In this document: piece by piece, positions 21,542-55,505 of the stretch | How positions within the stretch are numbered: position 1 is the stretch's first letter | Layout of the letters: each line of letters starts with the position of its first letter | Source: Branchiostoma floridae | Lineage: Eukaryota | Direction of reading: 5' to 3' | Length of the DNA: 64,000 bases | Assembly (NCBI RefSeq): GCF_015852565.1 | Contig: NC_136205.1 | Span: 3,066,707 to 3,130,706 of the forward strand | Notes under the pieces: generated by a model | Seen by the model: the letters and a program-made list of their open reading frames with translations, nothing else | Databases searched by the model: none | What the model was told of the DNA's origin: nothing | Program-made: the position numbers and the translations under genes

Positions 21542-21673
21542 ATGGGCGTGTTCCGTGGTTGCCAGGTAACCCTGGAGCTGACAGGTGTCACACTTCCATA
21601 TAAGGAGAAGAAGAGGCTGAGGGAACTCGTCACACAGAATGATGGCATCATCTCTTACATCATCAACAAAAAG
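21542..21673 (+). CDS. PARP4: PARP4 exon 1 (BRCT, N-terminal part)
   Basis: [44 protein letters not shown]. Compare human MGIFANCIFCLKVKYLPQQQKKKLQTDIKENGGKF. Acceptor cctcag directly before the ATG. Donor gtcaga. Confidence 0.85.
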
Positions 21674-22902
21674 GTCAGAGGGCAACTGTTCATTGTCCAG
21701 TCAAAAAGCAATGCTTGAGTTGTAACTTGTAACGTATAGAGTCCAGTTGATTCTGTGTATGGATGTAATGTTTTCAGTGTGCCTGGACTTTATGTTTGAA
21801 GTTATTACAACATGTAGAATATATTGAGTACACTGTCTTATAAGTGGCAGGAAGTGATTGAGAAAGTGGTGTCACTACAAAGGTCAGACCTCCAGGAGTG
21901 ACTGGAAATAGAGTCCAGAGGTGGTAGAACTTAGCTATTTATCAGACATGGTAGACATTCCAGGTCATGGGGTCAATGGAAGGGGCCACTAATTCATGGG
22001 GAGGTATTGTTTTCAGTGTTTTTTTTTTGCAGTTACGTATTTTCCATCTGCTAGGTTAGAGTCTGTTCATGCAATACCTAAGGAATTTGTGAGACAAAAA
22101 AAGTATCATTCCATGTTAGAAATAACCATTCTGTCTTTTCTGTTGACAAATTGATTTACACATTTTCTAGATTTCATTTCTGGTACTGGGGAACAAAGAA
22201 AGGACGGACAGCTACAAATGCAGGACGGCGGTGAAACTCGGCCTGCCCGTGGTGTCGCTCGACTACATCGAGGCCTGCGTACAGGCAGGGGAGCTGCTCC
22301 ATACCGACAGCTTCCTATTGGTCGGGAAGAGCGTTGCTGACGAGTTTTCTACGGGCAAAATCGCAGGTAATTAGGCGATTACACGTAACAGATAAAGAAC
22401 ACAGATGTTCTGCCGCACGATGTACGTAAGAATTTGGTGTTCAAATATTTTAATGGCATTTATTTTTATATGGATTGATGCCCTATATTGTTTTTAATGT
22501 AGTACAGTGGAGTTGTACATGTGATGTTCAGAACAATTCAGGATGTTTCCAACTGGACATCCTGCAAGTCTGTACAATTTGAATAAAACTCGTCAAGCTT
22601 GTCAGGTAACAGACTTCACCTCAACTGCTTCAAGTCATTATAGAGAATTGCTAAACTTTCATTCCAACACAAAGATAATGTAGGGACTTAAATTTTCGGT
22701 CGATTTCCGTCAAGTTACCTAATGTTCACAGAATGACCCTTTCTCACTCCAGCAGTGACGTCAGGAAGACACCACTTTTGTAGGTGGGGGTCATAAGTAT
22801 CAGAAAGTCTATGTCGCCCCCCGTCTCTGTTGAGTGTGGGCCGATGGGCTCTGATGTGCAAGGCCTCCTTCACTCCTCGTGCGAAGAAATCCTCAACAGA
22901 GA

Positions 22903-22939
<37 letters not shown>

Positions 22940-25900
22940 CGACATAGACTTTCTGATATTTATGACCCCCTCCTGCAAAAGTGGTGTCTTCCTGACGTCA
23001 CTGCTGGAGTGAGAAAGGATTTTATTCTGTGAACAAGGTCGACGGAGATCGGACCGAAAATTTAGGGGTAAGTCCCTACATTATCTTCGTGTTGGAATGA
23101 AAGTTTAGCAATTCTCTATAATGTATTCTACCAACACAGATGAACTTTCATGCTATGCTTCAAGTCAATCTATGGATCTAAAGTGACATAATTTAAGTTT
23201 TGGCTGCCTTTCAAAGCAAATAATATCCAAATACATCATAACTGTATGGGCATGTTCGGGCATGAGCGGCACCTGCCACGGCACACGAGTCGGGGGTAGG
23301 AGGAACCCCCTACATCCTTGGTTGGAAGTCCTCCTAGCAGATGGATACTCCGAACAACAAAGCTGCATCTGCTGGAGCCGCCTCACACGTTGCATACAGT
23401 TGCCCCTGTGAGACTTAGTGCTCCAATAGACGAGAGGGTGGAGAAGGAATTGCACACCCCTCCTTCACCATAAAAAGTCATGTGCAGGTCAGGCAAACAG
23501 GCAAATAGCCTGTCTGCCTCCTCATCTGTCCAATCGACAGGAGAAAAACATCATAACTGTCAGGAAGATGTATGAATTTCTACTACTAGAATCAATGTTT
23601 TTTCTAGCCATATTGCATTCTCTATCCTGACATGCATTCATTTGGTTTATTGGTTGATATTAAGTTTAAGATAACTATATGACATGACTTATAAATCCTT
23701 ACCTAATATTCCAGCCCCAAGAAGCCTGAAGCAGGCAGAAGTAAAGAAGGTGACAGTAGACATCAACAAAATCAAGTAAGGTGTCTTATTTTGACCAATT
23801 AGGGTCTTTCAATTCGTTATGATTATTGAATTGATTAAAAGGAAAATTCGAGTAAAATTTCTTATTTTACCAGATGATCACAATTCTTAGCTTACCATGC
23901 AGATAGTCATAAAAACTAAAATATTTCACAAAGTTATGGATCTTTAATTTCTTGCTTATCATGTTTACCCACTTAAGGGTGTGGAAACAAGGAGAAAATG
24001 GTCCAGATGGAGCTTTCAAACCTGTGTACTCCAAAGATACCAGCGGAGATCATCACTTGGTAGACGGAAAATTTGAGGTGGCCAAGTATGTCTTCTTACA
24101 GGTGAGTGAAGAGGTAAATTCCATGCAGAGTTTTCTCAAGGAAAAGTTTGCAAAAAGCAGTTTCTGACATTGCAAGCAACTGGATATGGTTTTGGAAACA
24201 GTCAGACGTGCAAATGGGAGCATTACATTTGCGAGTGGAGTGACCAACCTGGGAGATGATGTGGAAGTTAAATTGGAGGATTCTTAGCCTTCCTGAGGTG
24301 CAAACATTACTGTCAGACATATTGAAGACTTTGACCACTGGAAATTACTGTTTATATCAGAAAATAAGACAATATTGCTTCCAGTTCAAGACTTTATCAC
24401 TTTGTTACTTCTCATTAGCCTTAAGACAAGGATTTCAAATCTTATACGTTTCAAGTGAGATTCTCTCTGTAATTCTCTAACAGAAAGATACTCAGTCTGG
24501 TAAGGTGACCAAGAAGGGTTCAGCTGCACCTGTACTGCAGGTGCTGGAGCTACAGGTGGCATCAGGTGAACCTGATAACTCGAAAGGAGAGTTCAAGTAC
24601 AGGGTCATGACACAGGTGAGAAAAGTATCAACATTCTTGTTGGCTTGTTTGTATTGCGTATTGGTAAACAGCTTCATCGAAAAATTAAAATCAACACACC
24701 AGGGTTTCTATACTGAGGAGCACAAGCTGCATTTATCCAGACAGATTTATTTGATCCACTTCAGGGCTCGAAATTCATTTTTGGGATTAGGTGCACTGGT
24801 GCACCCAGCTTAAAAGATTGGGTGCACCAAAAATATTTTGGGTGCACCACTTAAATTTAAGTAATAACCTAGTAATAAAACTTAGTTACAAGCTATCGAA
24901 TTCTTAAACAACAGACATTTTTATTATCTTTCTAACACTTAGATGTCAAGAATATGATGTACGTGTATACTATGTATACTTTGATATCTTTACATACATA
25001 AACCTAAGAAAATATTTGGGTGCATCCTGTGCACCCAGAGAAAATAATTGGGTGCACAGCTCCAATTCTGGGTGAACCTGGGTGCACATGCACCCAGTAT
25101 TTCGAGCCCTGCACTTACATCAGGAAGAACCCTTTTTTTGATAAGTGTGTTGGGTTTTTTAAATGCTTGAGATGTAGCTCTTCCCAAATATGGGACCTTT
25201 ATTTAGCATTCTATTGAGGCCAGCTAGAGTTGGATTTGGATTATTGTTTGTTTTACTAAGGCTTAACTCTCCTGTAATACCCCTACCAGGAGACAGGTGG
25301 CGCCAAAGAGTACAGGTACGTACAGACCGCGGATGAGGCAGTACAGGTGTACGGTATGCTGTACGACAGGTACACCAAACATCCGCACAACTACCGCAGG
25401 GCGGGGTCAGACGGGGACACGCCTTGGACGGTGGGGTCACCTCAACTGCTTCAGGTAAGTGGAAGATTTTTTTTAAAGCAAGAGCAAGTTAGATTAGACT
25501 TTGCATGTTATTGTCTGTACCCCTATGGTATCTGTATCCCCTGTGTCCGTACCCTGTAGTGTCCGTGCCACCTGTAGTGTCTGTACTCTCAGTAGTGTTT
25601 GTACAAGTTCCCTCTGTAGTGTGTGTACACCATGTATAGTTTCAGTGCCCCATGTATAGTTCCTTTAGCTCCATTTTTGGCCTTTAACAAAGTCCATGTA
25701 AAATGCTCCACAAATCTAACTCTTATTTGTCATTGTGGTAGGAAAACTTTTGCAACATACTAAAGGACCATTTAAAAGATATTGATGCCATCAAATGGAC
25801 ATTGCTTTTTCTTTCATTTTGGTAGGAGTAATTCGTCGATGTAGGTTAGACATCCAGGTAATAAGATACGCCAAAAAGTAGTTACTCTGAGCAACTGGAT

Positions 25901-28900
25901 ATGATTTTGGAAACGGTCAGACGTTTTGGATAGAATCCACTATCCTTCGTCAGTGACACTGAAGTGATCTGGAAGAAACAGGTCTTTTATACTCTAACTA
26001 TGGATGAAAACAATTTCAGATGTCCAATTTTGGTAGGAGTAATTGTTACATGATTGTATATCTTTGAAAAATTCTGTTTGTGCCCCTGTAGATATTGAGT
26101 GAGGTTCAGACCCACACAGCCAGCGTGCCCCCCAGTGTCCTGGCTCTAGTGGACTCACTCTGGGAGGAGGCTCTGGGAAACCTGTCTCACGTCATCAACG
26201 GAGATGTACTACACATCAAAGTGGACCAGGTTCGTTCGTTTGTTCGTATCCATTTTTGATTATACTGCTGCTGGGATCCCTGTCACGGGTAGGCAGCAGT
26301 CGGATAGTCTTCACACTGTGCTTATAATAATATAATAATATCATTAATTTCTTTCTGTCCCTTGAATTTTCAATGGAATACTTGTCGAGTGTGGAAGGCG
26401 CGATGATCCTAAAGGGGTCTTGGGAACTTAGTTTCAAAATCTCTGAAAGACCCCCTGAAACACTGTTTCCTGCATTTTGAGGGGCAAATTTTGCTGGTAG
26501 AGTAGACTCAGCTTGGTCCAATCACCAGGTATCTGAGCTGTATTCATGGAGATCTTTGCAATATTTGATTTTTTAGATATCTTTACATGCTGGTTTTTGT
26601 CCGTCACAAAGGACAAAATGTGTAAAATGTTTGTTTGTCCCTAGCTGCAAAGTTCCATCGAAAACAAGGACGGATGCAGACTAGAACCCTGGGTTGTACT
26701 GTAACCTAGTATTGATCAGAAGTTTCATCACTTAGTAATCAAACATACTTTCTTGATCTTTTAGGTATTATTATCACCTATAGAAATGTCTGATTTGTTG
26801 AAAAATATTGTATAATGATATGATATGAAGTTATGACGTTTAATTGAAATTATGACATTAATGCATTTTACATGAACTATTTTCTTTTCCAGATCGACAA
26901 GGCAGAAGCACTACTTCTAAAGCTAAAGCAGGCTGTTGAAAGGAAGGCAGCAAATGAGGAGCTTCAGAAACTCTCCTCGGAGTTTTACAGCGCCATCCCC
27001 CACCGACCCGTCCACAAGTGTGTCATCAGGAACAAGAGGATAATAGCACGGAAACAGGACATGTGTCAGGTACAGGGCTCTAGCCAGCTCGACATTTTTT
27101 TTCCGTCAGCCAATTCCCAATGTCGCGAAAACACTATTCCAGGAGTTAGAGAGACTGAACTGAGACCTTAAAAAACGGGTTTTAATGAGATTATCGTATG
27201 CAAAAGGGCACCGACACACAATATCAACAATCATAACAATAGCAAAACAAACAGTGTGTGGCTTTTACGGCCGTGGACGGCGTCCCCAAGCAGCCTGTAG
27301 CTTCCACCAAGGAGCTTTTATCAGATTTTTGTCCGTCAAAGTTGACGGATTGGTTTTAAAATTTTTCCGTCACACGCAGCAAATTTCCGTCAATTGACGG
27401 AAAAACGGACGCTGGCTAGAGCCCTGGTCAGGTAAAAAGTAGGCCGGTAGCCTAAAAGTAAGACATTGTCAGGCTTCAGTTGATCCATAGACTATAGAAT
27501 GAATGAATGAAGGAAGAAAACCTTTATTGTAAAATGATAAAACTATGTTTCTGCTCTCACAAGCTAAGTACAAGTCAAAATGATAATAAAAGATGACAGT
27601 TCCGAGTAGTCTGAGTACAAGTTCTTAATTAAGTTCTAGTGATGTGAGGGCAAGTTATCTCACTACATTACTACTAGTCTAGAAACAGGGCCTCAGTTGG
27701 CATAGCCTGGAGACATGATATGTTACACTTCAGTCAAGCAATACCAGGAAGACAAGACATGTCATGTCATGATATATCAAACAACCTGAAATTTTGCTAG
27801 TCAAGAAAGAAATCTGACAGAGGTTATGTGCTATATTAATTTTGTAGGTTTCAATGCATAGTACAAGATTGTACAAAATCAAAGCAGCTGTATATTTTAC
27901 TTAGAAGATTACTTTGAAGTTTATGAACTCTAGCATAGTCATATAATAACATTGAATTTAAAAATGGAATGCAAAAGTGTTTAACGTTAATTTTTCATGT
28001 TTCCTTTCCCAGCTGATTCGAGACATGGTGAGCGTGAGTGAGGCCACGAGCTGGGCTTATCGCCCGAGCGCCGTCGCCAGGTGCCACGCCCTCAGGTGTA
28101 ACATCCAACCACTGGACAGGGACAGCGAAGACTTCCGTAGTCTGGAGTCCACGATTTACTACAGCCAAGGGAAGGGGTAAGGCCATTGTGTCACAGGGAT
28201 GAGTGAGAGAGTGAGTGAGAGAGTGAGTGAGTGAGTGAGTGAGTGAGTGAGTGAGTGAGTGAGTGAGTGAGTGAGTGAGTGAGTGAGAGTGAGTGAGTGA
28301 GTGAGTGAGTGAGTGAGTGAGTGAGTGAGTGAGTGAGTGAGTGAGTGAGTGAGTGAGAGAGTGAGGTAGTGAGTGAGAGTGTTTGAGCGGTTGAAAGTTT
28401 TAAATTCTATTTAATAGGCTACATACATTGTAAGCTTATTGAACTTAAAGATCTTGTTACTTGTTTTGACTTGATCTTAAGATGTTTTGCCTCAATCTTG
28501 AGATGTTTTAGAAAAATCTTAAAATGCTTCATAAAACATCTCAAGATATTTTGAAAGTTGCTTGAAAAAGTCCCTGAATTTACTATTTTTTACAGTGATT
28601 TGAATGCGTATCTTAATCATATTGTCATCAGTAATACACCCAGTATTCTCTCAATCACCGTACAGTTTTTAGGGTTCATGATTGTGTTGTTGATAACCCC
28701 CTCACATTAGGCGCGATTCAATCAGACGACGAGTCTGCGAGCTCTAAATTACGAGGAGGCATGACCCTGACGGGAAGGGGGAACTCTGCCATTTCTTCGT
28801 TGGCATCAGGGTCATGCCTCCTTGTAATTTAGAGCTCGCAGACTCGTCGTCCGATCGAATCGCGGCTAATGTGAGGGGGGGTATAAGCACCATCCAATGT

Positions 28901-31900
28901 GGTAGATCTCTGGGTGAAAAACATGCTTGTGAGAGACACACATGGCCAAAGCGTTATTAAATTTCAACTATATGACAAGGACATACATGTAGCAGAAATA
29001 AGTTAAACAGCTTCTTTAGGAGTTTTTAAAAAAGGTAAAGTTCAACCACACTCCTTATTTTCAGTGGGCAGTCCATCAGAGTTGAGAACGTGTTCAGGGT
29101 GTGTCGCTCTGTGGAGGAAGCTGGGTTCAACTCTGCCATCGGGAATGTCCAAATCAAGTTTCACTCCTCACAGGTAAACTATTTGTTTTCTCACAATGAT
29201 TTTGTTACTAAATCATGTTTTTCAAAAGTGACTAATGAGAAGTTAACAAAGTTAGTATTTTTTAAAAAATTTTCTATATCAGTCTATCTTAGTTGAGGCA
29301 CCTGCATTTAAAGCTCCTTCTATGTATTTTCAATTAATAAATCTCTTTTGTATATTTTACAGGCACAGAACTTTGTTGGCATCTTGTCAAGGTAGGCAAG
29401 ATTTCAGTTCTGTATCTGTATCTGTATCTGTATCTATATAGCCGGTATAACCGCCGTTTGGCGTAACACACCAGCTTCGCAGGCACGCGGCGCGGCAGCA
29501 GCTGGTTATATTACACCAAACGACTCGTTACCCCTAACTTTTGCACATCTATCTGCAAGCATTCTTTAAAACTACCCAGAGAAGATGCCCCTACTGTACT
29601 TGGTGATAACAAATTCCACTTAGAATTGTTAAGAATGAATGACAAAAGGTGTTGATATAACCTTAACCCTGTGAAACTAGATCTTATGCAATAAATGATC
29701 TCTATACAGTCATCACATTAGTATTTAGTAACAGTTTTAATATTCGTTAACTAGCATTATTTTTAGTTGTCTGTCTCTTTTACACGTTAAACTAAAAAAC
29801 ATGACCTTGAAACGTGTGTTGTTCAGAGGTCTGCTGCTCCCCAAGGTCGTTGTTGATGACTTCGGCGGAACCAGAACTGACGCAGGCATGCTGGGACATG
29901 GCATCTACTTCTCAGATGCAAGGTAAGGGTCGTGTGGCGCAATTAGAGGGTGTTTGATTGATGAAACTCTTGTTTTCCCAGTTTTCCGTAAGCCAGTGAA
30001 AATGTTTGGTACATGGTGCTGAAATGCCGTCCATCAAAATTTGAAGACTTAGTCAGTTACTACTGGTGGCTGCTGGTCCCAGAAAAGTTATTTCCTGATG
30101 TCAGTTTCCTGCTATATGTATGTAGTACATGTATGACCTAGGAGCCAGTGGGGAAAATACTGAAGACTTTATCAAAAAGAAATTTGCAGTAATAATGACT
30201 AAAACTGGAAATTAACATAAACTAAAAAAAGAATATTTCATTGAGGCATGACACTATTGATTTCTTGTTTCTTGCTATTCAACAATGGTCCATTCTTACA
30301 GCACCAGTGCAAAATACTCCTCTCCCAACAAGTCCAGAGGTACCAGATACATGGTAGTGAGTGAGGTAGCCTTGGGGAAGTGTAAGGATGTGTATCAACA
30401 CGGCATCGATTCCTAAATGTTTCTAACATTTCAATCATGGTCCTTTCTTACAGCACCAGTGCAGCATACTCCTCTCCCAACAAGTCCAGAGGTACCAGAT
30501 ACATGGTAGTGAGTGAGGTAGCCTTGGGGAAGTGTAAGGATGTGTATCAACACGGCATCGATTCCTAAATGTTTCTAACATTTCAATCATGGTCCTTTCT
30601 TACAGCACCAGTGCAGCATACTCCTCTCCCAACAAGTCCAGAGGTACCAGATACATGGTAGTGAGTGAGGTAGCCTTGGGGAAGTGTAAGGATGTGTACA
30701 AACACGACACCAGCCTGACACAACCACCTCAGGGGTACAACAGTGTGCATGGAGTCAAGGGGACTGATGAGATCACTTCAGAGTTTAAGGTAGGAATATT
30801 CTAAATGAGAAACGAACTCTTCTCCAACTCCAAAGTATTGAATTTTTGTCTGAATAACTCAGTCGTCTTAATCTGGAGAGAATCTCATTTTCATTTACAA
30901 CTGTCTTGAGAAGCAAGAAGAAGTTGAACCTTTACATACTAGACTAAGTATACTTTAGACTTTGTTGTCTTAGTTTTATATCACATCCTTACACACATTG
31001 CACTTAGAATCCCTAGGAACTGCATTCTATTCACCTTGTTTCCAATGACATAATTTCCGAAAACCAACATGCGTATAGAAAATCACACTCTACAGCTAGT
31101 GCCCTTATACAAATGTCTGACTACTGGTTGGGGGAGATAGATAAAGGGAATTTGATTGGCGCCGTTATGCTAGATTTTAGCGCGGCATTTGATGTCATTA
31201 ACCACGATATTTGTTTAGCCAAGCTTAAGAGCTATGGTTTTGAGGAATCTGCAATCAAGTGGGTACAGAGTTATCTTGGCAACAGGAAACAAGCTGTATT
31301 CGTTAACGGTAGTTTTTCCTCATATAAAGAATCCAGGTGCGGCGTTCCCCAAGGCAGCTGCCTGGGTCCATTGCTTTTCTCTATATTTGTCAATGATCTC
31401 CCCGCATTTACAAATAGTATAGTAGTCATGTACGCTGATGATTCAACGCCCTCAGCATCGGCTCCCACTGTCGCGAAATTGAAATACAAATTGCAGACTG
31501 ACTTGGAGCGAATCTGGAATTGGGTACAAACTAATCATCTTGTTCTCAATATTGGAAAAACTAAATCAATCATGATGGGTACGCAACAAAAACTAAAACG
31601 TAATCCCAAATTAGAACTAAGAATAGATGGAACAGACATTACACATGTAGAACAGGCTGAACTGTTAGGTCTCACTATAGACCAACGTCTCACATGGGGA
31701 TCGCATATTGACAAAACGAAGAATAAAATGGCAGGCATACTAGCCACAATAAGACGACACAGGAAGTACTTCACAAAAAGTATATTGAGATCTGTTATTC
31801 AGGCTCTGGTTTTGTCACACATTGACTACGGCTCAGTGCTGCTATCCTCTGCACCACAGACACACATAGATGGTCTTCAGGTGGTCCAGAATCGCGCTGC

Positions 31901-34900
31901 TCGCCTGGCCACAAACAAGCCCTTTGACACCAACCTGGAAGACCTACACATGCAGTTAAAGTGGCAAACCGTTAAAGAAAGACTCTTCACAAATACTGTA
32001 TGTACATTCCACAAAATTGTTAAGGAAAGGCAACCCCAATGCATCTTCAAGCAATTACAAACAATTCAATCCACACATGAGCATCACACGAGGCTGTCTA
32101 CTAGAGGAGCATTCACTCAATCAAAACCCAAAACAAACGCTAAAACAAGGACATTTGGCTACAGATGCATCAAAACCTATAACACATTGCCAAACACAAC
32201 GACATCATACAACAACATTGAGTTCAAATCTAGGATAAAAGAGCTTGCGAAAACACGAGACAAAAGACAACCCCTGAGCACATGGTGGTAATGATTTTTA
32301 TATTTCAGTATATCTAAGTTATATATTTATGTTGTGTTATTAGTACACTTTTGATTGGATTGTGTTTCAATCAATTAAGTTAACTTCTTCTGCTATTCAT
32401 TATTTGTTATGTATGATCACTTCTTTATTTTGACCTCTGACCTCTGCTTATTATTTTGCTTATTATTTTACGCTAATTATCCGCTTTTGATGTTAAGTTG
32501 TTTCTTTTTCATTTCATGTATTTTATTTATTCTTATTATTATGACTCCAGGAAGAGTAGTGGCATGATTTTATGATGTACACTAATGGAGATCGCAACAA
32601 ACAAACAAACCTTGACCTGTACTTGTTAGAGAGCATAAACGTATAATAAAGGTCTTCATTATCATTAAAAAATCTTAGACAGAAATTGTCAACACAATGA
32701 TTACTAATAGATTTATATCATTTATAGCTTAATGAGTTTTGGTAGTAGTTAATTACATATGTTTCATACTCAATCTGGTATATCCTGTTACAGGATGATG
32801 AATATGTCATCTACAATGTTCAGCAGCAAAAAATGAGGTATGTGAAACGAATTCCCATAATTTTGTATCTTGTGTTGTTTATAACTGTGTGGCAGAAAGT
32901 AGAAGTGGAGATTGTCACTGCCCTAACATCAATTCTCATAATTTAACTGGGTGCCATCAATACCCCCAAATGAGAAAAAGACATGAATTCAATGTAATTT
33001 AAAGAGATACAGACATTACAGTAGAAGCCAGTCAACTGCACAATGGATTAATGCACACTTCTGTTAACTGCAAGGAATCCCAAACCGGTGCAGTCCAGCT
33101 AGATAACTTTGCATTATTACACCAGCCGGATAATTGCACGAGATTCATTGGCAAATAGGCCGTGCAATTAAGTGGCTTCTACTGTATATGAATGCAGCAT
33201 ATGTAATCCTTGGGTACATGTATATAGTATTACACTTCAGATATTTACGTGACATGTTCAAAATGATCTTGAGAATGCCTCTATGTTGAGGTCTTATGGC
33301 ATCTGATGGAATTATGAGACTCATAAGTTGATGTTACACAGTGTTTTTAACCAACCAATTCTCACTGTACATTAACCATTGCTTTCAAGTACTATTTATT
33401 TATTGGTTTAGCTGTTCAGAACACACAGCCAGGGTTGCCCAACTAGCCTATGGCTATTACAAAGGGCTAACCCTGCTGACAAAAACAGAGACAATACATA
33501 TGGATTTGAACAGAATACTTATCAACAGATTTTCTAAGTTCATAAAGGATAGAAATGAAAACAAAAAAAAGTACATTTATACAGTATATACAAGGTGTAG
33601 CATGGCATACATATTATCTATAATAGAATATATAACATCATATATAACAATATTTGCAATGAGAGGTCAGGGTCTGTATATACACGTGTATGACTATGTG
33701 TAAGGGTCGCCTAGGCATTCTCACAGTTTTCTTTTGCTTGATAACATTGTTAGTGCTTTTGCAGATGTTTATTTCATGACCTGAATTTCTCCGTTGTTGC
33801 AGGTACCTTGTGGAGTTCTCGCTGCCAGGTGATCAGGTGACACCTGTGGATGAGACTGCTTACCTGCACCTGCTCACACCTGAGGGGGAGGCAGAGGAAG
33901 GGGAGGATCTAAACAAGATCTGTAAGTGCTGTAAAATTATTACAGGCTTACAAACTCTTAGATAAACAGGTACATAGAAAGTAGTGTGCTCCCTTATGTA
34001 TTTGGGGGGTTGGCTCAAACCCTGGTTTGAAAAATAGTACATACATGACTTCTTCAGCACTTAACACTTATGACAAAGAGTGTAAAAGCACAACAGTGGA
34101 CTAACCCCATACTGTGGTGGTCCTGTGTAGTCTAAGGCCTGTAGAGATATAGCTGCCACCTCGTTCAGTCTATATATGATAAGTATGGGACTTAGAATTA
34201 GGACTAACTTAAGTGTTTTATGCCTTGAAAATAAAAAGTAAAATAATAATTAGAACATGCATCTATTGCATGTTACAGCTCTATATAGTCTATTGATTTT
34301 AACAGGATTCAAGTTTTGTTTTCAAAACTTATTAAAACTTTGAAAGGAACAATGATTTCACTAACTGTTACTGAAAAGCATACAACTTTTTTTTTTTCAT
34401 CCAGCCCTTGAAGATGTGCAGAACATTGCTGACCCTCTAGACAAGGTCAAAGGTGGGCTTATCTCCAAACACGGGGAGGAGACCCCCGTCCCGCTCAAGT
34501 CTGTACATGTCAGAGCCAAGCTCCTGGATTTAGCTGCACAGGTAAACTATAAGTTGTATCCATTATTTGATGAAACTGCTGCTGAGGGGTGGGTACCGGT
34601 ACAGAAAATTTAAGTACTATCTGGTTCATATAAAGAGGAAAATGTCCAGGTCTGGATCTGAACCTCGACCTGATTGTCTGTGAAAACCTTCGTCCTGAAG
34701 AAATTATGGTAACTACAAAGTAAAACTAAACTCTTCTTCACTCTTGTTATTTCATTGGACATTTTGTAAGCTCCCAAACGTGTAGACCAGTGCCATAATC
34801 TGTTCATTTTCTATCAGACTCTTATCAGGTCTGTTTTTCTTGGACCGGTAAAACAAGAAAAAAAATACACTATATCAATGTTCGTCCACTATTGCTTGAA

Positions 34901-37900
34901 TTATCTTGTATTACGTAACACTTTGAAAATTGTTTGGCTGAAAGGCTGATATAAAATCAAACTATTATTAAATAAACTGTTTTCTTCCCCTCTGTAGGTT
35001 GTTGTGTTGCAGTCCTATAAGAATGAAAACAATGTTGCCATCGAGGCCAAGTACGTGTTCCCGCTAGATGACATGGCGGCTGTTGTCGGGTTTGAAGCAT
35101 TCATCAACGGGAAGCACGTGGTCGGAGAGGTGAAGGAAAAAGAGGAGGCACATCGCGAGTACCGACAGGCGATCAGCGAGGGACATGGTGCTTACCTCAT
35201 GGACGAAGAAACTCCTGTAAGATTCTTGATGACTTAAATTCAACAGTTATTTTTGCAGTATTAGTACTGTTAGTAGTATTTTGTGTAATAGCATTGTGGG
35301 TAAAACTGTTTGCTTTGTATTTGAGATTTTGTGTGTTCAAACCCCAGGTGAGTCATAATAGAGAATTTTGAAGAAATTATGTCATACAGTTTGATGCAAA
35401 AGAATGTGTACTGCCTTATACAGAGTTTTGGGTCACAACAAAATAGCAATATACAAGAGGGCCAAGTAAGTATCCTGGTGGAACCCCAACCCTAGACCAT
35501 ATATCTTTTGACAAGAAAAACTAAGTTTCCACTGGTCAGTCTGTGAATGTTTTACTACCTTCTTGTCACTGCGCCAACAAACAATGTTTCAGTGTCAAAG
35601 AGGTACATTCAATGACACATATCTTTTACATACAGTGACAATTGTTATGATTTGTGTTTTTCTAGGATGTGTTTACAGTGAGTGTAGGGAACCTGCCCCC
35701 CAGAGCCAGTGTACTGATCAAGATCACCTACGTCGCTGAGCTGGCAGTGGAGGGAGAAAACATCTGCTTCAGACTGCCTGGCAGCGTCGCTCCCTGGCAG
35801 GTGTGTTTGTCTAGAACTTTGTTACCATGGCAACAAGACGTTGTTATCTCCGTGTACGAATGATTCATTCTGTTTTTTTTATATTCTTGGTGTCCGTAGT
35901 TATTTGAATACACTGTCAGTAGATTTTGAGTGTCAGGAAGTGAGTGGGAAAATGGTGTCACAGTGTAAACTTGGGAGAGTGACAGTTCATGAAAGTATCA
36001 GACATGACAGGTCATCGGGTCAATGGAAGAGGCTACTAATTTCACGGGGAGACTATTTTTTTGTCTGTGTATTTGCAGTTATGCATTTTCCACATGCAAG
36101 TCACACTCACTATAGAGTAACAGGAAACAATCATTATTTAATGGACATATAATAAATGTAATAAGGACTTCGAACTCTTGTTTTGGATGTTGAGATAATA
36201 TGTACATTGTATAATGTTTGTTTGATCACAACTAAGATTATTCAAAGATTTTTTAAGCTTAGATTTTCCACCAACAGAAAGATTCACTCTCTGAGAAGAT
36301 CCAAAAGGACCTGGAAACTGTCAAGGTGGAAAAGGATGCTGGGAAAGAATTCTCCCTCCAGGTCGCCATGGAGATGCCCTTTGACATCAGGACCATCCAA
36401 TCACCATCTCACAAAATCAGAGTGAAGGTAGAAATTACTTCCATGACCTGTTTTGACTCAGCCAAGGCACTCTGTTTCTTTGTCACTAACCATTCTGTTA
36501 TAATTACAAAATGTACTTTGAAAATGCTGATGAGCTTTTGCAAACAAAACAATAAAAACAGTCTTGAAAACAATTATCCAATCAGAGGACTAGATTTTTT
36601 TTAGAATGTTCCTAAATAATGTATTGCATGCTCAGAAATGATTAATGTCATCTCTGACTACTGAGGGCATAATTTTTGTCCTGTAATTTTCTTTGATTTT
36701 TCTTGCTATCCTCTTATATTTTATGAATATACTATTAGATGATAAAGCAGTGGTTTGATAATAGATATTACTTCATTCCTCAGTTATGAATTTAGATGAA
36801 ATGGTTATCTGTGTGTAGGGTCAGAGAACGACTCGGCATAATTATAAGTTTCTCTTTATCCCCACCAATCAGAGGACAGCAAGCAAGGCTGTAGTGGAGC
36901 TGGAGAAGAACTGCATGCTGGGAGCTGGTTTCCTGCTGCAGGTTGGGCTGGCTGAGATCCACGTACCCAGGATGTGGGCGGAGCGGCACCCTGACAAGGA
37001 CAGCCAGGTTTGTTGGTTTGTTTGAACTTTAGCATGAAAGCTCATCTGTGTTGGTATAATCGATACTGAAGGTTTTTAATTGTCATTCAACACAAGAAAT
37101 TGCTCTCCTCGAATTTTCGGTAGCACATCCGTCAACCTTTGACAGGAGTGGTGGTTCAATTACTCTAAACATGTGATGTAGGAACACGAATGAAGAATCG
37201 TAGATGCTTGGCAAGCGGTATCGGCCCCCGTCTCTGTTAAGTGTCGGCTAGTGTGATCTTATGTGTATGGCCTCCTTTACCCCCCTCGCGAAGTAATCCG
37301 GTTCAGTATCCAATATTTGTGCTTTGTTTTAACTTTGTTTCTTCATAAAAGCTCAAATTGTCCTGCAGGCTGCTTTTCATTGAGGTCATGAGGGAAGAGA
37401 CAAGGGTCAGACTAAGTGTATAACAGAGATACAATACAGTTAATGATGATATGCATTCTTTGATTAATATCATCATATAGCAGGATATCAGTTGATGATA
37501 CTCTTTCCTCTTTTTATTTGAGGGACTGAAAAAGTCACAAAGTTGTGTTTAAGGGTTGAACTATGCCATCTCTTTTTTTAAACCCTCTTCATTATACACA
37601 GGACTGTGAGGGTCAACAAGTTATACTAAGTCTTATGTGGGGGTGAAGTCTGCTATCTCTAATGATTTTACTTAAAAAAAATCTGTTCATACACAGGCCT
37701 GTATGCTGACCTTCTACCCAGAATTCCAAGCAGAGGTTATGCAGGGTCATGAGGTCATCCTCCTCTTGGACGGGTCCAACTCCATGCGGGGGTCAGCTCT
37801 GGAGGCAGCCAAGAAAGTCGCCCTGCTCTGTCTGTGCCATCTACCAAAGGAATGTAGCTTTAACGTTGTTGCTTTTGGCACAGGTGTGTTCTTAATCATT

Positions 37901-40900
37901 TTCATTTTGAAAACAGATTTGCAATGGAATATGATTCTATTTAACTTTCTTTGGTGCTGATTGGCTATCACACGATGCGGTCTCATTTCAAATGATTCTA
38001 TTTACCTTTCCTTGGTGCTGATTGGCAATCACATGAGGCATTCTCATTTGAAATAATTTTATTTACCTTTCATTGGTGCTGTTTTGCAGATTTGTAACGG
38101 AATACAAAATAGTCTGAAGCTTCTGTACGTTGGTGCAGTCGCTGTAGAAGAGCAATTTGAAAGAGTGCTCAACAAATTTCATCGATGAAATATCAAACGT
38201 TTGATAGGATATAGCCCTTATTCATGTCCTTGTTAGGTATTGTGATGTAACTAGTTTTTCTTTATAAACTTTACAAATTCCATTTTGTAGGATATGAGGA
38301 ACTGTTTGCTGTGAGCCAGTCCAGAACCAAGTCCAATGTCTCTAAGGCTGAAACCTTTATCCAGGTATAGTCTTCATCTCATTGTTATTGAGCATTATAA
38401 CTTATCCCATGTAACTGTCTTTCAAGGTTTATTAGGCAAGAAAACAGTATACTGTTCCTTTTTGTTTGCCATTCTAATGAAATCTTGTTTCATCTGTCCT
38501 TGGTGCTGATTGGCTGTTGCATAGGTAGTCTTCTCCTATGTAATGATTATAAACTTATCTTACCTTGGTGCTTATTGGCTGTGACATAAAGAAGTCCTCT
38601 TTCAAATGATTCTATTTCATCTTTCCTTGGTGCTGATTGGCTATCACATAAGGTGGTCTCATTTCAAATGATTCTATTTCATCTTAAGTTGGGTTCTGAT
38701 TGGCTGTGACATTAAGCAGTCTCCTTTCAAATGATTATATTCTATCTCTCCTTGGTGCTGATTGGCTATTACATGAGCAGTCTCATTTCAAATAATTTTG
38801 TTTTATTTAGTTAATGCTGATGGCTTGGAATTTAGGCAGTCTTCTTTCAGATGGTTCTATTTTATTTCTCCTTGGTGCTGATTGGCTATCACATGAAACA
38901 ATCTCATTTCAAATGATTCTATTTCATCCTACGTTGGTGCCAATTGACTATCACATGAGGCGGTCTCATTTCAAATGATTATATTTCATCTTACATTTTA
39001 CTGATTGGCTGGAACTTGAGGCAGTTTCTTTCGAGTGATTTTATCTAGCTTTCCTTGGTTCTGATTTGCTATCATCTCATGCAATGTTATTAAAACTAGT
39101 CTATTTTATCTCTCCTTGGTGCTGATATGCTATCACGTTGTGTAGTCTTTTATCTAAGTACTAGTTTTATCCCACCATTTATACTGAATGTCTCTTGGAT
39201 AATCCCATTTGATATCTGATTTCTCTTCCCTTACTAAATATCAAAACACAGCAAACCATACACTTTTTGTAGGTGATTTTCAGTAGTGATACATTTGACA
39301 AGAAAGCCATAGAAAGAAAAATGTTCTTACCAATTTCTGCAATTATTTTATCAGAATGTCAAAGCATCCAAGGGAAACACAGATGCATGGAGACCCCTGC
39401 GTGGGTTCTTCCTGCTTCCGCCGTTGGGTAAAACACGGAACGTGTTCCTCATCTCTGACGGACATGTGAACAACCCTGACCAGACTCTGAGCGACATCCA
39501 CCAACATTACCAGGAGACTAGGGTCTTCAGCTGTGGTGTGGGGTAAGGACAAATCTCACAAGATTTTGTGTACTATTCCTTGAACCTTGAACCTTGACCA
39601 TTCAAGATTCAAGATATAACAAATTGATCCTGACTGTCCGTAATAATTAGCAACCAATGACACTACTGGGAGACAAGGGTCTTCAGCTGTGGGGTGGGGT
39701 AAGAATGCATCTCACAAGATTTTGTGTACTGAACTTGATTCTACTGGAAGATACATTTGTAAGTCAATGTGTAACAACAGACAGATCCTGGCTGTCCATC
39801 ACAATTAGCAGTTTAACCAATGATGGTATGGTAATTAGTGTTTAGATTGGCTGCAGTCTCGCAGACATTTGCATTTTTCTGTTTTATATCCTATCTTCTG
39901 CTGGAGGTGGATGGGGCTATATGAGATTGGTCTACTGGTTAAGATTTGGAGACTTACTTCATGACTTTTTAGTTACTTTTGTCACTCTTTTTCAACAATA
40001 ATAATATGTAAGATGGAAATAGAACAATTGAACATCACAAAGTCTGTAGAACTCATATGAAAATGATTAGTTACAGAGATTGCCTTCCAACATAGCAACC
40101 TTCCATTTTTTTTTCATGTAGAATGTAGCAACAACACAATAATTCTTGATGCTTGTTTTTAGGTCAACTTCCAACAAACATTTGCTGCGAGCCTTGGCCA
40201 GGGTGGGAGGGGGCGCCTTTGAGTATTTTGATGATAAAACCAAATCCAAGTGGGAAAAGAAGGTAAAGTCTATCATTTTATATCATGAACATGTAATATG
40301 TTTCATCGTTTCCCATAAAGTTTGCATTGCATGTATATCTTAATCTATATTGTCATTTATCAATAATTACTTTTAATACTCAATTTCATATACTTTATTA
40401 GGCTTTTATGCATTTTGTTATTTATGTATGAATATCAAAACACATAATTCATTACATACTCTCAGGCATACTTTCATACACATGTGCACACATAATTTTT
40501 ATACAAACACACAAACATACACATAGGCACAGAGACACAAACACACACACACACACACACACATACACACACCACTAAGGTCATCTAAGGTCAGGACACA
40601 CATACCTATATGGTATCAAGTTACATATACTAGGGCAGTATGCAACGGAAAGGTATATAAGTGCGAACTTTGTGTCAGCCTCAAACCTCAGAAGATATTG
40701 AATGTGCACAGCAAAACTGGTTTGGCTGACCAGCTAAAAGTTACACACTGAAACTTGTAGCTCCAGATGTCTTACTGAGGGATGACTGCAGTGCAAAATA
40801 TGTTGGTAGCTTAAAGAATGAGTCCACTCAACTTTATACATAATACACACAACACACATAGGTACACAGACACAAACACACACACATACACACACACACA

Positions 40901-43900
40901 CACACATGCACACACATGCATGTACAATCATGTGTACACTGAGAAGATATTAAAGCAAAGCTTAAACCTCAAGTTTACTGTGTTTGATATAGTGACTAAT
41001 ATACATGTAGATGTATCTAAAACCCTGTCAAATTCCTAGGTGAAAGCCCAGCTGTGGAAAGCTGCCCAGCCCGGCCTGACGTCCATGTCAGTTGATTGGC
41101 AGCAGTGGGATGATGATGCCCCGCCTCCTGTCCAGGCCCCCAATCAGATCGTCTCTCTCTTCAACGGTTTCCGTCAAGTGGTGTATGGCTACGTCCCACA
41201 CTGCACTCAGGTCAAAACATTCCAATATACATGTAGTACCTGTCAACTTGTAAACCTGAGTCTGTAAACTTGTAAAATGCAAAACTTTGTACTAATTTGT
41301 ACCAGGTCTCAATGTTGTGCTCTTTGGAATTTAGGCACAATATCCACACTCATCAGAATGAATACCACAGTATCCATTTTTATTAGAATGAATACCTAAC
41401 TGTTGTTAGTGTCACTAAAATGAGTGATGCTGAAGAAGAGTGATGGATGTCACTTGAAATGTCCGTTTTTTTATCCAGTTGTTGGGATTGAATTGTATTT
41501 GAATATTGTTTACCTGGGTGTCCAACCTTCATAAAGGACTTCTCAAACTAATCTGAAACATGGCTAATCATTCTAAAATGAAAAAGTTTGTAATTGAAAT
41601 TACTGTAAATGTATTTAAGTTCGCGGCGATTTAATTTTGCGGGAGTGGGAAATGGACTTTTCACCGTGGTTTTAATTTTGCAGTAACACCATAGACTACA
41701 GTCTAATACCATAAAGAAAAATGTTCGCGGTGGTTTTAAGTTTGCGGTGAGGTGGTCTCCGCGAAAACAGCTAGCATTAATCCACCACGAACATTTCTGC
41801 ATTTACAGTATTGTTTTTATTTATTCCAGGCCACCCTGAAGGCTGTCATCAACAACCGGGAAATCAGCACCATGGTCTCCACCACTGAACTCAGCATCAC
41901 CACAGGCAAGGTGGGACAGGTTTTTGGCTACACCTCTGGGGTGGAGGCCATATTTCTTTTTAATAGCTGGGATTATTTCCTGTAACCAGGCATTTTAATT
42001 TGTTTGTTGATTGTTTATTTAAGGATTGAGACCTATACTAAACATACATGAGCAAAAGAGAAATAAAGCAACAGCTGCAGTAACAACACAGAATAAGAAC
42101 ATTCATACAACATTTTGGCAACTGTCTGTCACCTTCCTCAGAGCAATTCTGAGGGCCACTACACATTTTAGCTAAGGTGTCGCTGCTAGCAATGCACGTT
42201 AGGAACTATGACAGCCATTTATGCGTTCCCAAATATAACATTATACATATAACATATATTGATCACAATGATTGTTGTCATATATAAAATTACAGATGCC
42301 GACAGTCAGTAGATCCTGGTTGTGAATAAAAAAAATGTTACATTATAATAGTGATTTTCCAACCTGACTAAATGATTCAAAGGACTAACCACACAGTTTT
42401 GTCCCAGATCCTGCACCAGCTGACGGCCCGTGCTGTCATCAGAGACTGGGAGGACGGGACCCTGCATGCAGACAGGATGCACCATGAGGTCAGCGTGTTC
42501 TAAATCCTGACATTGAGAATCAGTGTGGTATTCCTCATGTCATGTGTGGCTGTGCTGGGTGGTTGTCTTTGTAGTACCGTAGCACAGTTTTCGTTGCTCA
42601 TTTGTACATTCTGCGGTCATGATCTTCTAATGGTTGATAGGTCTTTGGCTCATGAAAAAGTGGTATAATTTTGGGCCCTCTGGCAGCTTTTTTTAAACTG
42701 TAGGAGGCGATGTTTGAAAAAAAGAGTAAGGCAGGTAGGGGTTGACGGATTGTCACAATTTTTGCTATGTAGATGGCTTAAGAGATAATTGACATACTTA
42801 GTTGGCTTGTGTAAAGGGGTATAGTTTGGGGCTCTTTGGCAGCTTTTTTTGTAACTGCAGGAGCAGGATCTTCATGAATTTTGGTTAAAAAAAAACTTTG
42901 TAGATGGCTTTAGAGATAATTGACATGCTTATCTTTCTCTCTTTTTTTCCAGACAAAGAAAATGGGTCTGAAGCCGTACATTATCGACCTTAGTAAGGAG
43001 TACTCCATCGTCACACAGTTCACCAGCTTTGTAGCTGTGGAGAAGCGGGAAAAGGTGAGAAAAATTTTGGTGACACCAAGGGAACAGAACTTGTACTTGT
43101 AACAGTTACTGTAAGTGTGGAAATAACTCATAAGCCAGAGCGAAAAAAAAAAAAATCCATGAAAACAAAAATTCTGCCAAACCACAGGACTAAACATCCA
43201 GACCATTTTTTCCCAGGCTTGGTTTGTCTTATGGTCCACATCCAGTAAACCTGTAAGATACAATCATCGCCATTTCAATAAATATTTATTCATTTATTGC
43301 TATTCTTGTTCAAAGAGGGGAACGCCCCATGCCCTGACCATTTGCCCCCTTACCCTGAGGAGCGGATCCTCTGACAGTTATAAAATTCTGATTAACCAGG
43401 GGTAGTTTAAGGACAAACGTGGGCATAGTTTGTTTGTTTTTTGAGAAAAGGGGAAAAGCAACACACTCACGGATGTTATTCATAGAATGAAGTCAGTGTG
43501 GCCTATGACATAATGATTGTTTGATGCAGGATGAAGATCTGACTACCGGTGAGGGTCCAAGCATCACAGAACTGGTGGAAAAAGAGAGTGTGGACATCCT
43601 ATCCTACATGGGATGGGAGAGGGACAAAGGGGAAGAGGAGGCAGAGGAAGTGTATAAGGTATGAGCCAAATTAAAGTGGAATTTTGGCTTGCTTTAAAAT
43701 GAAAGATTTTTGTGAAGAAAATCAAGTACGTGTGCCTTAAATTTTTTGACTGGACATCGCATAGTTTCTTGTATTCAATTTCTAGAATAAAGTGCTTGAT
43801 GGACAGATCACAGAAAAGGCCATTGAACACAGCTTGGAGTTCTACACCACTGCAGTGGAGACTGCAAAAAGGGAGCTTCCCCCAACCCATCCAACAGTGT

Positions 43901-53440: not shown

Positions 53441-54935
53441 TATCTTTGTGTGAATGGCCAGCTATGTGTAGCAGTATGGTTGTTGTAACCATACACTAAC
53501 CTTGTTTGAATGGGTCATGGTTTGTTATGGTTTTGGTGTGTGTGTGCGAAATAGTGGTTTGATCATTACTACAATGGTCTAATCTGATTTTGTACCCCTC
53601 AAAACATGGAGACACCAGAATAATTATTTTTGTAGCAGGTGTGGTTACAGTGATATTGACAAAAACAAGATTTTCTGTAAAACTGCCAAAATGGTGGTGT
53701 GATCATTACAAACATGGATTAATCTGGTTATTTATCCTTCGAAACATGGGGATAGACACCAAAATCAATTTGATACCATGTGAAGTTACTGAGATATTGA
53801 CAAAAAGAAGACTTTTCTTAATAAGTTAATGGCCGCCCTACTTTGCATATTGTGCGTATTGCCTAATGATGACAGAATGGCATAATCCAGATTCTTATAG
53901 AGCACACCTCAGAGGCATAGAAACATCAAAAGAACTTTGTATGAATTACATTGCAAGGTTATGTAAAAATATGGGGTTTGGCAACCAAACTAAGTCTTGT
54001 GTGGTAAGTATCAATGTGGTCGCTATGTTCATGTTGTAACAAAGACATTATAAAATGAAGGTATTGAAGTCAAAAGGCCAGTAACATTCTGTGCATAGTA
54101 AGAAAACAGTTTGTAATATATAGTTGTCAGGCACATGGCAGTATTGTATATCAGTAATAGTATCAAAATGACACAATGAAGAACTGGTAACCTTTAGCGC
54201 AAAACACCTGATCATCTGTAACACTGGACACACAACCATATAAATACAGTGTAGGTCCTAGTCATGACTTCCACTGGCACAATTTAAAGCCACCCTTCAT
54301 TCCAGATATCACATGACATCCCAACCATTTACCCAACATAAATATCAAATCCTATGATAAACATTTACACCAAAACAAGGTACAAACACACACAACCATA
54401 CAACATCGCAATACATCATCGCATATGACTATCAGTACAATAGACAACAAAAACAAGGGTATACATAATCTACAAAAAAAAACATACACATACCACTCTC
54501 TTACGCTAACACACTATCTCCTTCTCCTCCACCTTAGAAACTCGTCTCTTCTTGCGTTTCCCCATGATGACCAAACACGCTCATAACCTCGTATCACAAG
54601 TATAGAGGCTTGTACAGGACTGAAAGCAACACTTTAGCCTTCAGCACCACAACTTATACCTGACCAATCAATACAGCAGCAGATTAAACCAACCTACAAG
54701 CACTCTTAGAACAGAAGCCACTGATGTGATTTGTAACAACAGCACAGCCTGCTGTGACCACAAGCAAGCAGACCTACATGTACTAGTATCATCTGTTTCT
54801 TAGGAACAAATCCACTGCAGGATATCTAAAATTAGACCTGTCACTCAAACAGCCACACAAACCGTCATCTGGGTTCACAACCAAGCAGATATGAGTAGAC
54901 CTGCCCCAACCAAAAAAAAAACAGCATCAGCCTAC

Positions 54936-55505
54936 AGTGTCAAGTTCAAGCACTAGGAGGCCCAAAATCAAACCTGACCACCAGGACACAAGCAACAATC
55001 CACGTAACAAATAGCAACACAATGGCACCTTGCGTTCCGGAGATACAGCGCACGCGCCGTGCCCGCAGAAAAGGTAACCTGGAATGTCAAGTTCAAGCAC
55101 CAAGGGCGCCAAAATCAAAATTGAGAATTATTCAGCCACCACCAACACATGTGCCAAATATCATTGCGCCCGCACCAACCGTTCAGAAGATATAACTCCG
55201 GAAAACCCCCTCCCCGACACAAAATTCGACCTGCCGCGTCAGGTTCAAACGCGACAAGGCCCAAAGTCAATCCTAGGCAACAAGCAACAACTCCCCACCC
55301 ATGCACCGAAAATCGTCGCAATGGCGCGTATCGTTCCGGACACACAGCGCCAAAAGTGCCCCAAAAAACACAAAAAATGCCACCTTCAATATTAAGTTCA
55401 AGCACCAGGAGGCCCAAAATCAAACCTGAGTGTCAAGCTAACACCCCCAACCCACGTACCAAAAATCGTCGTGCTCGCACCATCCGTTCTCGAGATACAG
55501 CGCCC
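54936..55505. repeat. Tandem repeat, about 4 units of 148-154 bp (intergenic)
   Basis: Unit starts gtcaagttcaagcac at 54938, 55086 and about 55392, plus a diverged gtcaggttcaaacgc at 55238. Confidence 0.8.

Follow-up and report, generated by a model that had tools for sequence, protein, structure and literature searches.

A minisatellite-like tandem duplication reiterates the exon 13 acceptor of PARP4 in the amphioxus Branchiostoma floridae

Introduction

Minisatellites whose terminal unit lies across an exon/intron boundary, so that a splice site is itself reiterated, have been described in F7 (intervening sequence [IVS] 7, a 37-bp variable number tandem repeat), CBS (IVS13), IFI6/6-16, LMNB2 and PDGFA, and the pseudo-sites created in this way are silent in some such genes and spliced in others (PMC1557585). 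Here, we describe a related arrangement in the PARP4 (vault PARP) gene of the amphioxus Branchiostoma floridae. The gene was analyzed in a window of 64,000 nt of contig NC_136205.1, and all positions given below are those of this window unless marked L006, which denotes the orthologous locus of Branchiostoma lanceolatum. In the window, a 152-bp unit containing the 3' splice site (acceptor) and the beginning of exon 13 occurs three times in tandem. We favor, with modest confidence, the explanation that this array is a real, lineage-specific and minisatellite-like tandem duplication with its last unit across the intron 12/exon 13 boundary, and that it is a by-product rather than an evolved attenuator of PARP4 output.

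The array resembles the F7 type in that its units are arranged head to tail, one of them holding the authentic junction and the others placing exact, competent copies of the splice site in the adjoining intron, and both represent a natural cis-competition on splice-site choice. In contrast, the cited members of the F7 type reiterate the donor and have the authentic site first, whereas the amphioxus array reiterates the acceptor together with its branch point, and its predicted productive site is the last of three; a rule by which the first site wins would therefore do harm in the amphioxus array. The amphioxus array also differs in consisting of only three units of 152 bp, each with approximately 100 nt of real coding sequence. 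Judged from its sequence, it is a mirror-image variant of the F7-type minisatellite, the acceptor-side counterpart of a well-studied donor array, and nothing suggests a new kind of regulatory system. Literature searches for acceptor-side boundary minisatellites, or for rules governing duplicated acceptors, returned nothing beyond the discussion in PMC1557585.

Two further systems invite comparison. In human FGG, a 403-bp duplication of the exon 8/intron 8 junction likewise duplicates a splice site with part of an exon, and use of the extra site leads to aberrant transcripts with a premature termination codon (PTC) and to disease (PMC9052919); that duplication is donor-side, recent and clearly deleterious, whereas the amphioxus array is apparently partly old, in a gene that is otherwise intact. 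Poison exons and decoy exons, as described in reports on SF3B1 and OGT (PMC6097662, PMC7373989), are also intronic exon-like sequences with a genuine 3' splice site which lead to a PTC or to non-productive RNA. Unlike the amphioxus copies, which are known from their sequence alone, the exons in those reports have both splice sites and are documented by transcripts, and the decoy exons reside in introns larger than 1 kb, compared with 683 nt for the amphioxus intron (PMC7373989). The functional pair of 3' and 5' splice sites that characterizes a decoy exon is thus incomplete in the amphioxus copies, which have strong 3' sites but internal donors scoring below all 27 real donors of the gene. Tandem exon duplication can also serve mutually exclusive splicing, and the array shares with such exons the local duplication of exon sequence with its acceptor. 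Mutually exclusive exons were nevertheless rejected as an interpretation, since the copies are truncated (the 5' half of the exon, ending after about 101 nt), contain a TAA, have no donors and provide no in-frame substitute for exon 13.

Structure of the array

Tandem Repeats Finder (TRF) located the array at 30278-30706 (period 152, 2.8 copies, 97% matches, score 809), and a repeat search returned three copies at spacings of 152 and 152 nt, head to tail and without spacer. In a base-by-base comparison at an offset of 152, the segment 30314-30546 equaled 30466-30698 with no mismatch; the array is thus perfectly periodic over 385 bp (30314-30698) and degenerate at both edges, and a chance origin of such a perfect repeat is impossible. 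No further occurrence of the 152-bp unit was found elsewhere in the window. These three approaches agree with a first-pass annotation of this DNA, which had reported three units with starts at 30302, 30454 and 30606. Its description of the unit, in which the branch point and polypyrimidine region are followed by the acceptor and then by the start of exon 13, with only the third copy continuing into the rest of the exon, also holds at the sequence level.

The three acceptors are identical (ttacag/CACCAG, with the first exon bases at 30302, 30454 and 30606), and every unit reads ttacag followed by CACCAGTGCA. The exon-derived part is identical between copies over 93 nt, with recognizable homology up to about 101-108 nt, which replaces the earlier estimate of approximately 88 coding nt. 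Copies 2 and 3, reported before as almost identical over their common part, are fully identical there and diverge only past +93 (TATCAACACGG versus TACAAACACGA). Copy 1 carries a Lys codon (AAA) where copies 2 and 3 carry Ala (GCA), so that its peptide has to be corrected from STSAAYSS to STSAKYSS. When preceded by exon 12 (end at 29922, phase 2), copies 1 and 2 read STSA(K/A) and onward to a stop codon, TAA at 30414-30416 in copy 1 and at 30566-30568 in copy 2, while copy 3 reads on to the donor after 30789. The coordinates of the features are collected in Table 1.

Table 1. Features of the PARP4 gene and of the acceptor array (window positions; L006, B. lanceolatum locus)
Feature	Position	Strand	Description
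PARP4 (vault PARP) orthologue	21542..44187	+	Clean model of 30 exons, 1,386 aa; RefSeq path of 33 exons, 1,450 aa
Exon 12	29827..29922	+	Donor AAG/gtaagg, feeding all three acceptors
Intronic half of the likely breakpoint microhomology, CATGACAC	30247..30254	+	In register with exonic CACGACAC at 30703-30710 (alignment)
Original upstream intron flank and acceptor 1 (AG 30300-30301)	30255..30301	+	Polypyrimidine tract interrupted (tccAttcttacag), ancestral, as in B. lanceolatum
Copy 1 of the exon 13 5' part	30302..30394	+	Ancestral AAA (Lys) at 30311-30313; 30314-30394 equal to copies 2 and 3
Junction 1	30395..30453	+	Decayed exon-derived piece TCAACACGGCAT (in-frame TAA 30414-30416) joined to an intron-derived piece
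Intron-derived piece of junction 1		+	CTAAC branch motif (A at -28), uninterrupted polypyrimidine tract, acceptor 2
Copy 2 of the exon 13 5' part	30454..30546	+	GCA (Ala) as in the real exon; identical to copy 3
Junction 2	30547..30605	+	Same sequence as junction 1 (no difference over 71 nt); TAA 30566-30568
Contents of junction 2		+	Branch point, polypyrimidine tract and AG (30604-30605) of the predicted productive acceptor
Authentic exon 13, 184 nt	30606..30789	+	STSAAYSS…TDEITSEFK, donor AAG/gtagga; orthologue is a single B. lanceolatum exon, L006 11698-11883
Exon 14	32794..32837	+	Catalytic Glu (DDEYVIY); absent from any decoy-terminated product

The gene carrying the array

An exon model was assembled from frame-consistent GT-AG junctions that link the open segments of the plus strand from 21.5 to 44.2 kb. 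With the acceptor at 30606, the open reading frame (ORF) stays open across all 30 exons, of which the array-bearing exon is the 13th, and the internal exons measure 29-219 nt (median 135). A frame break between exons 11 and 12 proved to be only apparent and was resolved by a 29-nt micro-exon, located with the sequences of relatives. This micro-exon (29363-29391), which encodes AQNFVGILS of the conserved PARP helix, is easily overlooked, and its omission breaks the frame between exons 11 and 12.

The product has, in the gene order expected of PARP4, the Pfam domains BRCT_2 (4e-8), PARP_reg (6e-9), PARP (7e-23), VIT (2e-39) and VWA_3 (5e-22), that is, BRCT, PARP regulatory, PARP catalytic, VIT and vWA, followed by a C-terminal 14-3-3 domain. 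For PF00644 (PARP catalytic), exons 12 and 13 give E=2e-15, and the wider region gives the 7e-23 above. Identity to named PARP4 proteins ranges from 41 to 92%, with 92% to XP_078585828.1, 87% to PARP4 of B. lanceolatum and roughly 50% to PARP4 of many invertebrates. Over its whole length, the catalytic region can be aligned with the human PARP4 structures 8sx1/11jf (E about 1e-74), compared with only 1e-20 to 1e-17 for PARP2/PARP1, and the H-Y-E catalytic residues are present, since FHSS, GIYFSD and DDEY align with the human PARP4 positions. According to the alignment to 8sx1, the catalytic Glu is encoded in exon 14, downstream of the array. By these sequence features the gene is an intact PARP4 orthologue, and the Pfam domains and the structure alignment confirm the gene name given in the first pass.

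The last exon (43786-44187) encodes the C-terminal half of the 14-3-3 domain (PF00244, E=1e-30). PF00244 is also listed for the PARP4 of B. lanceolatum and of Ptychodera flava, and not for the vertebrate or mollusc matches, which suggests that the PARP4/14-3-3 fusion is confined to some deuterostome lineages.

Origin and history of the array

At the orthologous B. lanceolatum locus (L006, OV696701.1:11977221-12003397), exon 13 is single-copy: all three copies of the window map to one L006 interval (11687-11798 / 11886), and TRF detected no array at the orthologous place. More distant relatives (L002 and L003) have one copy, and their introns are different or missing. The contig of a further match (L001) ends within intron 12 and is uninformative. 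No close relative was recovered from a metagenome scan with the exon 13 peptide. Because the B. lanceolatum locus is single-copy, the array is lineage-specific; by this comparison it postdates the separation from the B. lanceolatum lineage and does not belong to the conserved features of PARP4.

The copies do not look equally old. The edges of the array are about 22% diverged from the sequences they derive from (11/49 positions, plus two 3-nt indels), as opposed to 0/81 and 0/81 in the core and 0/71 in the junctions (Fisher p=1.5e-4). The combination of diverged edges and an identical core therefore rules out a single recent event with uniform decay, and the simplest account would be that an older duplication was expanded or homogenized recently, as in a minisatellite. 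In tandem arrays, unequal exchange and gene conversion homogenize the interior, whereas the outermost edges escape. The earlier proposal of a very recent neutral duplication would thus apply to the last step only, while at least one further step is indicated to be older by the divergence and the two indels of the edges. The second duplication of this gene, at exon 23 (see below), has its differences spread evenly and is an example of an un-homogenized duplicate in the same gene.

The junctions and copy 1 give an indication of the order of events. Where the junction changes from exon-derived to intron-derived sequence, the two are nearly identical in register (CACGACAC / CATGACAC), and this is likely the microhomology used in the first duplication. 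The exon-derived part of the junction (TATCAACACGGCAT) has four changes, all of them derived with respect to the real exon and to B. lanceolatum. Comparison of the intron-derived part with the outer flank shows 7 mismatches over 36 positions and two 3-nt indels. In copy 1, the Lys codon, common to B. lanceolatum and human PARP4, and the interrupted tract ccAttc are both ancestral, whereas copies 2 and 3 have the derived Ala and the uninterrupted ccTttc. A chimeric join of the parental haplotypes was rejected as the source of the junction, as four derived changes in its exon-derived part are not expected from mixing. An error-prone origin in one step could in principle have produced the mutated junction, and would need about 20% errors over approximately 60 nt.

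We hypothesize the following sequence of steps. A 152-bp segment (about 50 nt of intron and about 100 nt of exon) would first have been duplicated between the 8-nt near-identical stretches CATGACAC and CACGACAC, after which the new junction and the outer flank would have diverged. The acceptor now serving the real exon would have gained a cleaner polypyrimidine tract, and the real exon would have changed from Lys to Ala. Much later, the unit may have been re-copied, or the array homogenized by unequal exchange or gene conversion, to give 2.5 perfectly identical units. The array would thus be a by-product of the mutational habit of this genome.

The genome was obtained from an F1 interspecific hybrid with >100x PacBio (20-kb-library) reads and short reads, its haplotypes being partitioned by parent, in a species with a heterozygosity of 3.2-4.2% (PMC10013865). 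A gross assembly artefact is unlikely, and the exact count of identical units is that of this one assembly. The real allele could have two units (one decoy), the third having been added by assembly or polishing, or by a somatic or de novo expansion in the F1; units 2 and 3 and both junctions are 100% identical over 385 bp, as would be expected of a very recent event or of an error in the consensus. However, at the depth and library size mentioned, the 456-bp array should often be spanned by single reads, and neither the diverged edge of copy 1 nor the evolved junction can be an artefact. We consider this explanation improbable.

Predicted splicing of the three acceptors

Splice sites were scored with a position weight matrix (PWM) trained on the 26 other acceptors of the gene, and with a donor matrix based on its 27 donors. 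The acceptors at 30454 and 30606 both reach 10.8 bits, above 22 of the 26 real acceptors, and that at 30302 reaches 7.6 bits, the median of the real acceptors; only 0.4-1.5% of the other AG dinucleotides in the gene attain these scores. A perfect CTAAC branch motif is present at -28 in copies 2 and 3 only, and no yTnAy branch motif occurs in copy 1 from -40 to -15. Based on PWM scores and branch motifs, all three are predicted to be credible acceptors, with copy 1 the weaker one. Since copy 2 and the predicted productive acceptor are identical from -71 to +93, the three acceptors provide a clean natural 3' splice-site competition in a basal chordate.

On matrix scoring, no usable donor was found inside the copies, the best candidates being below all 27 real donors, and therefore an upstream acceptor can only give a 5'-extended exon 13. 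This exon would measure 336 nt (via 30454) or 488 nt (via 30302), both extreme relative to the internal exons of 29-219 nt. In silico, an upstream acceptor combined with the normal donor gives a product of 545 aa that stops before the catalytic Glu. The premature stop precedes the exon 13/14 junction by 373 or 221 nt, well over the approximately 50 nt before a downstream junction that define a poison exon in alternative splicing coupled to nonsense-mediated decay (AS-NMD), and at least 15 junctions follow. The configuration is textbook-like, and such transcripts should be substrates of NMD; the truncation before the Glu and the NMD-target configuration had both been anticipated in the first pass. 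In-frame inclusion of mini-exons, enumerated by hand, was rejected: only a 78-nt or a 90-nt piece of copy 1 is in frame, and both need very weak donors. A search of a collection of 5.8 billion proteins with exons 12 and 13 as the query returned no product ending in YQHGIDS, only ORF calls on contigs of other species.

We propose that the productive mRNA has exon 12 spliced to the third acceptor at 30606, which would give the normal 184-nt exon. The length of intron 12 is 379-683 nt depending on the acceptor. Because the introns of the gene are mostly >400 nt, exon definition is plausible; if dominant, it would favor the third acceptor, and the upstream sites would then be leaks. These sites would be competent competitors whose use leads to the extended exons, the TAA, NMD-prone transcripts and the truncated protein described above, and on this haplotype their net effect would not exceed a partial, passive and unregulated drop in PARP4 output. 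In mice deficient in PARP4, development is not obviously impaired (PMC9404506), and such a partial loss may be tolerable since loss of PARP4 is mild, at least in the mouse. It may be speculated that the derived strengthening of the real-exon acceptor is what would be expected if competition from the older decoy mattered.

A stronger effect is conceivable, in which most transcripts are spliced to 30302 or 30454, reach a TAA and are degraded, so that the allele is hypomorphic or nearly null and the PARP4 of this haplotype is becoming a pseudogene. The upstream acceptors are transcribed first, copy 2 equals the productive acceptor and copy 1 the median real one; the intron is of moderate length, which makes cross-intron pairing with the nearest acceptor conceivable, and the RefSeq model takes 30302 as an acceptor. 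The outcome of the FGG duplication and the dispensability of PARP4 in mouse development also fit. On the other hand, no decay is seen elsewhere in the gene, with its 30 open exons and intact H-Y-E and domains, although the older decoy has coexisted with it through approximately 22% edge divergence. The changes in the productive acceptor are derived and strengthening, and the exons of 336 and 488 nt are far beyond the size range of the gene. Overall, we regard such a loss of function as unlikely.

The RefSeq model of the locus

The protein XP_078585828.1 (annotated for Branchiostoma floridae x B. japonicum; P0128 in our set, where it forms a singleton cluster) has 1,450 aa, and a 33-exon path through the window yields it without any difference; the window is therefore the annotated locus itself. 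It departs from the clean model by insertions only. At the array, its path runs from exon 12 through 30302-30402 and 30454-30505 to 30606-30789, and the result is an insertion of 51 residues in the catalytic domain (TSAKYSS…DVYQH, 17 further residues and C). This insertion was found in no orthologue compared, including those of B. lanceolatum and human.

According to this path, all three copies would be exons and PARP4 would have an in-frame insertion in its catalytic domain, for which the exact match to the annotated protein is the argument. Against it, the intron 30403-30453 is of 51 nt and of the GC-AG type (acg/GCATCG … ttacag), with a donor of -4.0 bits and the CTAAC branch motif only 23 nt from that donor, and the intron 30506-30605 is of 100 nt (atg/GTAGTG … ttacag), with a donor of -0.3 bits. 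Both donors are below all 27 real ones, and both introns are shorter than the 26 other introns of the gene (189-2004 nt). Moreover, the piece 30454-30505 is read in a shifted frame, and the same GTAGTG site is present, unused, within the real exon 13. Because of these weak donors, short introns, close branch motif, shifted frame and unused site, and because the orthologues have no insertion, the threading of the copies into the coding sequence is judged here to be an ORF-rescuing annotation artefact, and the chance that the RefSeq reading is correct seems very remote.

The same model also takes the exon 23 duplicate, as an extra exon at 39662-39698, into the protein as a 13-aa insertion, through a 117-nt intron without GT-AG, which counts further against its reading of the array. 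When the 51-aa and 13-aa insertions are removed, the clean protein of 30 exons and 1,386 aa is obtained. XP_078585828.1 thus almost certainly holds two spurious insertions, one in the catalytic domain and one in the vWA region, both of which arose as the annotation pipeline was forced to keep a frame open across a duplicated exon/intron boundary, and users of this protein for comparative or structural work on PARP4 should strip both. Regarding the view of the upstream copies as decoys, their stop-bearing anatomy stands, while the public RefSeq model instead splices them in frame, which we judge to be the artefact.

Is the array a regulatory device?

The first-pass annotation had proposed, as one possibility, a built-in splicing-level attenuator. 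In such a device, the decoy acceptors would be kept in order to send a regulated share of the PARP4 pre-mRNA to NMD, or to leave the intron unspliced. In favor of it, the premature stops are placed as in AS-NMD, both decoys have strong acceptors, and their exon-like core is preserved perfectly in spite of decayed flanks; regulation by decoy or poison exons exists in other genes (PMC6097662, PMC7373989). However, such identity of the core is expected from unequal exchange or gene conversion, and similar duplications occur across the window; one of them, in PARP4 itself, is diverged and has no sign of maintenance. The decoys have no usable 5' splice site, and their intron of <1 kb is unlike the decoy-exon introns described in PMC7373989. 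The PARP4 of B. lanceolatum also has no such array, nor do more distant relatives. Deep conservation is frequent among regulatory poison exons, and the conservation that would mark this element as one was not found, given its single copy in B. lanceolatum and its absence in L002 and L003. The proposal of a built-in attenuator is thus unsupported and disfavored, and we consider such an origin very unlikely, the array being one of many ~150-bp duplications in the window.

A more specific version, a maintained acceptor-side decoy device in which the two preserved acceptor copies and their exonic enhancer context would set or tune PARP4 output via NMD, with the core kept by selection, seems to us just as poorly probable. 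Even if unselected, the array would be the first described natural case of three identical 3' splice sites of which only the last is productive.

Several points weigh against our preferred explanation of a by-product that leaves productive splicing to the third acceptor. The assignment of 30606 as the productive acceptor was derived from exon size and site strength alone, and copy 2, indistinguishable from it from -71 to +93, could take a large share of the splicing; early experiments with duplicated sites gave conflicting rules (PMC1557585). The perfect exon-like core could be read as constraint on the decoys and not as homogenization, and the start of RefSeq exon 13 at 30302 might reflect RNA-seq support instead of ORF maximization. 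In addition, the age layering is based on short edge segments (49 nt).

Other duplications and repeats in the window

The window contains many local direct repeats with a spacing of approximately 130-180 nt. One of them is the second boundary-spanning duplication of this PARP4, on the donor side, at 39495-39574 and 39651-39730 (156 nt apart, 84-87% identity). The repeated segment (39504-39574) comprises the last ~39 nt of exon 23, its GTAAG donor and ~32 nt from the start of the intron, and its second copy, 156 nt further on, is 87% identical; in B. lanceolatum the segment is single-copy. Because there are many local repeats in the window and one more in PARP4, the acceptor array can be regarded, on this sequence evidence, as one product of a general mutational tendency, and ~150-bp tandem duplication seems to be a habit of this genome. 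Such duplications, which appear to be frequent in amphioxus, create cryptic splice sites and lead to errors in annotation.

More direct repeats with 130-180-nt spacing and 72-92% identity are located at 47671-48010, 51232-51743, 53622-53815 and 54931-55514; the pair 51496/51675 ends in CCAAG/GTAGGA and may be another duplicated exon/donor boundary. An intronic minisatellite of ~62 nt with the conserved core CTTGGTGCTGATTGGCTATCACAT is found at 37931-39136 and at L006 19245-20125, in the same PARP4 intron of both species, whose introns are otherwise barely alignable. A (TGAG)45 tract occupies 28200-28377, ~24 nt past the exon 9 donor, and a 63-nt repeat of 5.8 copies (44194-44559) starts 7 nt after the PARP4 stop codon.

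Intron 13 contains a 5'-truncated non-LTR (long terminal repeat) retrotransposon at 31033-32610, ~230-240 bp past exon 13, with an open reverse transcriptase (RT) frame of 424 codons. A second copy, 99% identical, is found on a metagenome contig of the Joint Genome Institute (JGI; L005), which makes the family a young one and shows that the metagenome contains amphioxus DNA. L005 was rejected as a PARP4 locus, as it holds a different copy of the element. Upstream of PARP4, on the minus strand at ~1500-10000, a neighboring gene has a long series of EGF-like (CxxxPCQNGGxC) exons with a period of about 235 nt.

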